This document shows, one piece after another, positions 1 to 565 of a DNA stretch of 565 nucleotides (positions are counted from its first letter, which is position 1; the number at the start of each line of letters is the position of its first letter). This DNA is from Escherichia coli. GTDB taxonomy: Bacteria > Pseudomonadota > Gammaproteobacteria > Enterobacterales > Enterobacteriaceae. A program made the translations under genes and the position numbers. The notes under the pieces were generated by a model. The model saw nothing but the letters and a program-made list of their open reading frames with translations, was not told the origin of the DNA and made no database searches. The stretch lies in the NCBI RefSeq assembly GCF_003334335.1, contig NZ_QOWQ01000171.1. One strand, 5' to 3'.

Positions 1-552
1 CGCCTGGTTAAACGTCAGCCCTGCCGCCTGCCCGGCTCTGGAGAGCGTCAGCATACGATCGGCAGTCAGTCCGGCCTGATTGCCGGAAAGGACCAGCGTT
101 TTATTAAATTCTGAAAGCGTGGAATCCCCCTGGTACCAGGCGTACGCCAGCGCACCTGTCGCCACCGCCAGCGAGGTGACCCCGACCATCGGCAGGCTGA
201 TCGCACCGGCAAGCCCCCTGAACATGGGGATCATCCCGCCGAAGGAGTCCTTCACCTGACCGCCCTGTTGCAGCAGGATGAGCCAGGGATTCTGACCACC
301 GGCAAGCTGCGTGGCGATATCCGTAAACTGTGCGGGCAGGGTACGCATGGCTGCTTTATACTGCCCGACGGAAATCCCGGCTTTTTGTGCGGCCAGCGCC
401 TGACGGTTCAGACTCTGCTCAACGGCACCGGCGGTTTTTCTGGCGTCGGTATCCAGTCCTGAAAAATGACGCCTTACCCGGCTCATCTGCTCATCGAAAC
501 GGGCCGCATCCAGACTCAGGTCAATAACAAGATCACCAACCGGCTGGGACAT
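1..552 (-). CDS. H: Tail tape measure protein, lambda gpH-like; N-terminal 184 codons only, 3' end lies beyond position 1 of the window
   Basis: Seen in sequence: the minus-strand frame is open from ATG at 552..550 to the window edge (184 codons, no stop, checked codon by codon). Recognition: the translation closely matches my recollection of the lambda gpH N-terminus (MAEPVGDLVVDLSLDAARFDEQMARVRRHFSG..., ...AGGQSPWLILLQQGGQVKDSFGGMIPMFRGLAGAI...), with scattered, mostly conservative substitutions. The start is preceded by a strong Shine-Dalgarno. Identity level is not computed; it needs an alignment. Confidence 0.92.
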   Translation of the reverse strand, partial: MSQPVGDLVIDLSLDAARFDEQMSRVRRHFSGLDTDARKTAGAVEQSLNRQALAAQKAGISVGQYKAAMRTLPAQFTDIATQLAGGQNPWLILLQQGGQVKDSFGGMIPMFRGLAGAISLPMVGVTSLAVATGALAYAWYQGDSTLSEFNKTLVLSGNQAGLTADRMLTLSRAGQAAGLTFNQA

Positions 553-560
553 ATCTCACA

Positions 561-565
561 CCTCC
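561..565 (-). promoter_or_regulatory. Shine-Dalgarno ribosome-binding site for the tape measure gene (GGAGG, 8-nt spacer to ATG)
   Basis: Seen in sequence: the minus strand reads GGAGGTGTGAGATATG, with GGAGG 8 nt upstream of the ATG at 552..550. Inference: this is a canonical enterobacterial SD with appropriate spacing. Confidence 0.6.

Follow-up and report, generated by a model that had tools for sequence, protein, structure and literature searches.

The gene upstream of a lambda-like tape-measure gene is almost certainly the T frame, ending 20 nt inside H in an ordinary variant of the lambda T/H junction

The window considered here (the whole stretch of DNA that was analysed, 565 nt) carries on its minus strand 13 nt of upstream sequence, followed by codons 1-184 of a lambda-like tape-measure gene, H. 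The gene located upstream is almost certainly the lambda-type tail-assembly chaperone T frame, terminating 20 nt into H with the TGA at 535..533. This junction is an ordinary, already annotated variant of the T/H junction of lambda, and nothing in it is novel. Read in this way, it settles the 3' boundary of the G-T frameshift product in the lambdoid phage and prophage group of the window, and illustrates that the position of the T stop depends on the codons that H uses at its first few positions. About one complete E. coli genome in three carries the variant, whose coordinates are already present in GenBank and RefSeq. Its value is in annotation, where the TGA lying 3 nt ahead of H should not be mistaken for the end of a gene.

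The minus strand of the window starts with GGAGGTGTGAGATATGTCCCAGCCGGTTGGTGAT; it reads GGAGGTGTGAGAT-ATG-TCC-CAG-CCG-GTT-GGT-GAT..., after which a single open frame runs to the window end (Table 1). The 184-codon product begins MSQPVGDLVIDLSLDAARFDEQ... and is, over residues 1-119, 87% identical to the N-terminus of lambda H. The fragment matches two tape-measure families of PHROGs (phrog_4498 at 1e-121 and phrog_24 at 9e-81), and both PV340545.1 and NZ_AP022815.1 annotate H as a tape measure protein. No NCBIfam model matched the 184-aa N-terminal fragment, and the identity of H was instead taken from PHROGs and from direct comparison with lambda. As in tape measures of the lambda gpH type, the gene is homologous to lambda gpH and lies directly downstream of G-T. 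Homology to lambda H extends to the very first residue (MSQPVGDLV vs MAEPVGDLV), and the ATG at 552..550 is the annotated H start in both records. It is also the sole possible start, since H is bounded upstream by the in-frame TGA at 558..556, from which only GAT separates it.

Table 1. Features read in the window around the T/H junction (window positions)
Feature	Position	Strand	Basis
5' part of H, lambda-type tail tape-measure gene, codons 1-184	1..552	-	One continuous open frame on the minus strand
Start codon of H, ATG	550..552	-	First start after the in-frame TGA 558..556
Last 10 codons and stop of the T frame (C-terminus of G-T), GGVRYVPAGW then stop	533..565	-	157-codon open frame in the PhiR5_1 locus
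T / G-T stop, TGA, made by H codons 6-7 (GGT GAT)	533..535	-	Annotated T end in GenBank and RefSeq
Overlap of T (-1 frame) and H (0 frame), 20 nt	533..552	-	Extended records
TGA in frame with H, 3 nt upstream of its ATG; no gene end	556..558	-	9 open codons upstream
Predicted Shine-Dalgarno sequence of H, GGAGGTG, 6 nt before the ATG	559..565	-	Read directly from the sequence

The H coding sequence is overlain by other open frames: four ORFs of 30-65 aa on the plus strand, between 66 and 527, and one of 48 aa on the minus strand, at 66..212, in a different frame from H. A plus-strand gene was considered and rejected as unsupported, the plus-strand ORFs being antisense to the strongly conserved H frame. 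All five look like shadows of a GC-rich coding region, and show no gene-like signs.

A preliminary description, made from the letters of the window, had located the H start and two candidate stops for the upstream gene (558..556 and 535..533), and all of these coordinates were found to be right when re-read on the minus strand. It had also taken the frame of the upstream gene to be undetermined. Its count of 13 nt of upstream sequence was correct, but the window does give an indication of the frame, as the first 15 nt of the minus strand, read in the frame that ends at 535..533, give G-G-V-R-Y, the same five residues that precede the terminal Gly in lambda T.

Longer records containing the same sequence show directly what lies upstream. 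Over its full length, the window matches Escherichia phage PhiR5_1 (PV340545.1, 36219-36783) and prophages in 8 complete E. coli chromosomes with 100% identity, and matches of 80-99% identity are found in thousands of other prophages. Flanks of 4 kb on each side were taken from PhiR5_1 (locus L001) and from E. coli JE86-ST05 (locus L002), the minus strand of the window corresponding to 4001..4565 in both; the sequence upstream of the window is, in this way, that of identical records and not that of the window's own contig. The two loci are 96.5% identical over 8.5 kb, with 43 differences in 3100..4600, and identical records that diverge upstream still agree on the T frame and its stop. The gene order in the extended locus (major capsid, FI, FII, Z, U, V, G, T, H, M, L, K, I) is that of the lambda head-tail module.

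One peculiarity of the phage record concerns H itself, about 2.2 kb downstream of the window. In PhiR5_1, H is split into two CDS (4014..6347 and 6347..6586 in L001) by a 1-nt deletion in a G-rich run at about 6245, where GGGGA-CGGGGG replaces the GGGAACCGGTGG of the uninterrupted prophage H (857 aa). Either a sequencing error or a genuine frameshift could be behind this deletion.

The frames, their open lengths and the stop positions can be read directly in the two extended loci. In both, V occupies 2394..3140, G 3162..3593, and the T frame 3560..4033, with H starting at 4014; G and H are in frame 0, and T is in the -1 frame. In L001, the -1 frame is open for 157 codons (3560..4030) and closes at 4031..4033, which is 535..533 of the window. 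The annotations of GenBank and RefSeq (T at 3620..4033, H from 4014) give an overlap of exactly 20 nt, the T stop being H nucleotides 18-20. Of the two endings that the preliminary description had proposed, it is thus the second, in the frame kept relative to lambda, that holds: extension past position 565 reveals a long ORF homologous to lambda T in precisely this frame. The slippery heptamer GGGAAAG, which was to be looked for further upstream, is present and in phase. An ORF does, therefore, end at one of the two TGAs, and the gene upstream is a tail-chaperone gene.

The other proposed ending, at the TGA 558..556, would leave the two genes without overlap, the upstream gene ending 3 nt before the H start. 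A TGA is indeed present there, in the frame G-GAG-GTG-TGA, and a short intergenic spacer is a common gene arrangement. Nevertheless, the frame of this TGA is H's own and is open for only 9 codons (WLQRGFPEV, then the stop) after the previous stop at 3978 of L001, and this is so in every extended record. Frame 0 of L001 is closed six times before H (3657, 3744, 3864, 3975, 3978, and 4008), no ORF of at least 40 aa ends at this TGA, and the homology to lambda T lies in the other frame. The probability of this ending is consequently negligible. The third frame of L001 is repeatedly closed too. Within the window, the 188 codons of the -1 frame include 8 stops and the 187 codons of the +1 frame include 9; given this density, a stop is expected by chance within 6 codons of any point, and the occurrence of two TGAs near the H start is unremarkable. 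The upstream gene is, then, best read as the T frame ending at 535..533, a placement that no observation contradicts.

The identity of the two chaperone frames relies on several comparisons. By BLASTP, T is 73% identical to lambda T, and G 65% identical to lambda G. The NCBIfam models TIGR01715 (phage_lam_T) and TIGR01674 (phage_lambda_G) match them with 203.9 bits (cut-off 77.35) and 161.5 bits (cut-off 74.45), respectively. A PHROGs family of fusion length (phrog_32165, 290 positions) is matched by G over positions 1-141 and by T over positions 140-290, to the last query residue. Two overlapping ORFs, namely G and the T frame, are thus found between the major tail protein gene V and the tape-measure gene, the two parts being homologous to lambda gpG and to its T domain, with a slippery site in phase. 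A single GGGAAAG heptamer is found in the 8.5 kb of the locus; it spans 3569..3575 and is phased G GGA AAG, its GGA (from 3570) being a codon of the G frame. It is preceded by the opening of the T frame, 9 nt upstream, and followed by the G stop at a distance of 18 nt, as in lambda. The TGA 535..533 lies 456 nt downstream of the heptamer, counted from its final G to the first base of the stop codon. The deduced G-T fusion has 290 aa, with the peptide ...FSAGKVFDGELNFALR across the slip site.

In lambda, -1 slippage takes place at a low level, with a gpG:gpGT ratio of about 30:1; the G part binds gpH and the T part binds gpV, neither gpG nor gpGT is found in the virion, and T is reported to be made only as gpGT (PMC5009743, PMC3296357). 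Judging from the conserved anatomy of the locus, the phage of this window probably frameshifts like lambda. The production of the G-T fusion at a low ratio, and the need for it in tail assembly, are known for lambda only, and would apply here by analogy.

GenBank and RefSeq annotate T, in both L001 and L002, as a stand-alone CDS from the ATG at 3620, rather than as a slippage join. If this 137-aa CDS (3620..4033) were translated alone, no G-T fusion would be made, and the stop at 535..533 would remain unchanged. Such a reading is extremely improbable, even though the CDS is annotated in both records. The similarity to lambda T extends 15 codons upstream of the annotated ATG and starts at the slip site itself (VFDGELNFALRLARE vs VFDGELSFALKLARE), which supports the reading of G-T as a fusion. 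The fusion-length PHROGs family, matched by both parts, and the report that lambda T is made only as gpGT (PMC5009743, PMC3296357) also argue against separate translation. Furthermore, 78 of the 80 closest viral loci described below have kept the slippery heptamer in phase and at an unchanged distance from the G stop (77 with identical geometry, the other one being L030), while three viral loci carry A AAA AAG instead, in phase and at the same position. Annotating T as joined to G by ribosomal slippage would be preferable.

These viral loci stem from a scan of IMG/VR with the T part, which yielded 377 relatives, the best 80 of which were examined (T 88-100% identical). The 20-nt overlap and the same TGA are present in 80/80 of these best relatives. 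Their T tail is VPAGW in 77 loci and VPASG in 3, the latter with an H start of MSQPAGDL; in the VPASG loci L081, L082, and L083 (IMG/VR 2778261567_000001, 2617271340_000013, and 2541047950_000002), the 20-nt overlap was established by direct inspection. These three loci have no in-phase GGGAAAG. Their G frame at about 1488-1500 reads ACA TCA AAA AAG CAT, that is, an in-phase A AAA AAG, which is a dnaX-type slippery site. In addition, their G stop is at an unchanged distance, their G is more diverged, and an out-of-phase GGGAAAG is located about 30 nt upstream. In L030 (IMG/VR 2861053794_000003), the T frame opens 15 nt, not 9 nt, before the slip site, from which it follows that one upstream stop of the -1 frame has been lost; its slippery site and its 20-nt overlap are unchanged.

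Among bacterial genomes, a 70-nt query placed over the window junction matches 3142 places in 1671 of 5426 complete E. coli genomes, and a 70-nt query over the lambda junction matches 4188 places in 3493 of the same 5426, these counts being approximate, as matches of 95-99% identity carry 1-3 mismatches and the stop codon was not checked in each. Because the two queries share no 28-mer, the two megablast sets are essentially separate. The window-type and lambda-type junctions are both common alleles among the lambdoid prophages of E. coli.

The start of the minus strand also contains the likely ribosome-binding site of H. The motif GGAGGTG, given its complementarity to the 3' end of the 16S rRNA (established knowledge), probably serves this purpose, and it codes at the same time for Gly-Gly-Val of T. 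Lambda has GGAGGAG at this position, and in both phages the motif sits within the Gly-Gly codons that T conserves. The protein and the ribosome-binding site may, hence, jointly constrain the conserved GGVRY terminus of T.

A course of events can be proposed for this region, largely by analogy with lambda. The window would represent the T/H junction of a lambda-like siphophage tail module (order V-G-T-H-M-L-K-I). Upstream of it, ribosomes would translate the tail-assembly chaperone gene G, and a few per cent of them would slip by -1 at G GGA AAG, 18 nt before the G stop. The slipped ribosomes would continue for 152 codons in the T frame, generating the G-T fusion, with T presumably not made alone. 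The T frame would then enter the window at plus 565, add Gly-Gly-Val-Arg-Tyr-Val-Pro-Ala-Gly-Trp, and terminate at the UGA 535..533, 20 nt inside H. With only a few per cent of ribosomes in the T frame, if lambda is a guide, H would have to be initiated independently, at the AUG 552..550, presumably driven by the Shine-Dalgarno sequence GGAGGUG (565..559) within the Gly-Gly-Val codons of T. The longer overlap would be expected to have little effect.

The origin of this longer overlap can be traced codon by codon. In lambda (NC_001416), G spans 9711..10133, the T frame runs to 10549, and H starts at 10542; at its junction, GGTATGGCTGAACCG (...GGAGGAGTCCGGTATGGCTGAACCG...), T ends 8 nt inside H. 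In the window, H begins ATGTCCCAGCCG (ATGTCCCAGCC), the lambda stop at H nucleotides 6-8 is missing, and the junction is, therefore, not identical to that of lambda. The preliminary description had anticipated these points, i.e., the 8-nt ending of lambda T, the absence of an equivalent stop and a junction that may differ from lambda, and sequence comparison bears them out, with an overlap of 20 nt in the window vs 8 nt in lambda. At H codons 2-3, the window has TCC CAG (Ser-Gln) where lambda has GCT GAA (Ala-Glu), and it is through TCC CAG that the overlapping UGA of lambda (C-TGA-A) is lost. The next stop of the -1 frame is provided by codons 6-7, which are GGT GAT in the window and GGC GAT, without a stop, in lambda. 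These differences at codons 2-3 and 6-7 account for the extension of the overlap from 8 to 20 nt and for the RYVPAGW tail of G-T, the C-terminus changing from ...GGVRYG in lambda to ...GGVRYVPAGW, a net gain of four residues. The complete G-T has 290 aa, compared to 279 aa in lambda, partly owing to indels near the C-terminus of G and in T.

Whether such a tail matters for function can be weighed with the same data. Termination of G-T inside H, or the four extra residues, could tune H translation or T-domain activity in a manner different from lambda; the 20-nt geometry and the VPAGW/VPASG tail are invariant in the best 80 related loci, and the window junction type is widespread (1671 genomes). 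Invariance is, however, expected, given how little these loci have diverged (T at least 88% identical), and the tail is outside the conserved T core, which covers T residues 5-114 of 152 in TIGR01715 and 10-112 in phrog_39. Moreover, with a few per cent of ribosomes in the T frame, according to the lambda analogy (PMC5009743, PMC3296357), any effect on H initiation would be small, and lambda works with a shorter tail. A functional role for the 20-nt overlap is, for these reasons, highly unlikely. That the 12-nt longer overlap and the four extra G-T residues (VPAGW) define a functionally distinct allele is likewise very doubtful; if they did, access to the H start linked to termination, or the engagement of the major tail protein by the T domain, would be altered. 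Alternatively, the difference at the junction could be a neutral by-product of the two substitutions in H codons 2-3.

Compared with known systems, the locus is closest to its own kind: within the window, there is no difference from PhiR5_1 (PV340545.1) or from E. coli lambdoid prophages such as that of NZ_AP022815.1 (JL003_RS06100-06110). With lambda, it shares the order V-G-T-H, the in-phase heptamer G GGA AAG with the G stop 18 nt after it, a T frame at -1 relative to both G and H, a T stop inside H, and a T end reading ...GGVRY-. More generally, long-tailed dsDNA phages have a conserved -1 frameshift in their tail-assembly chaperone genes (reviewed in PMC5009743), and the locus has in common with this class two overlapping ORFs between the major tail and tape-measure genes, with a -1 slip site near the end of the first. 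It is a close relative of lambda rather than a distant analogue, and adds nothing new on this frameshift class.
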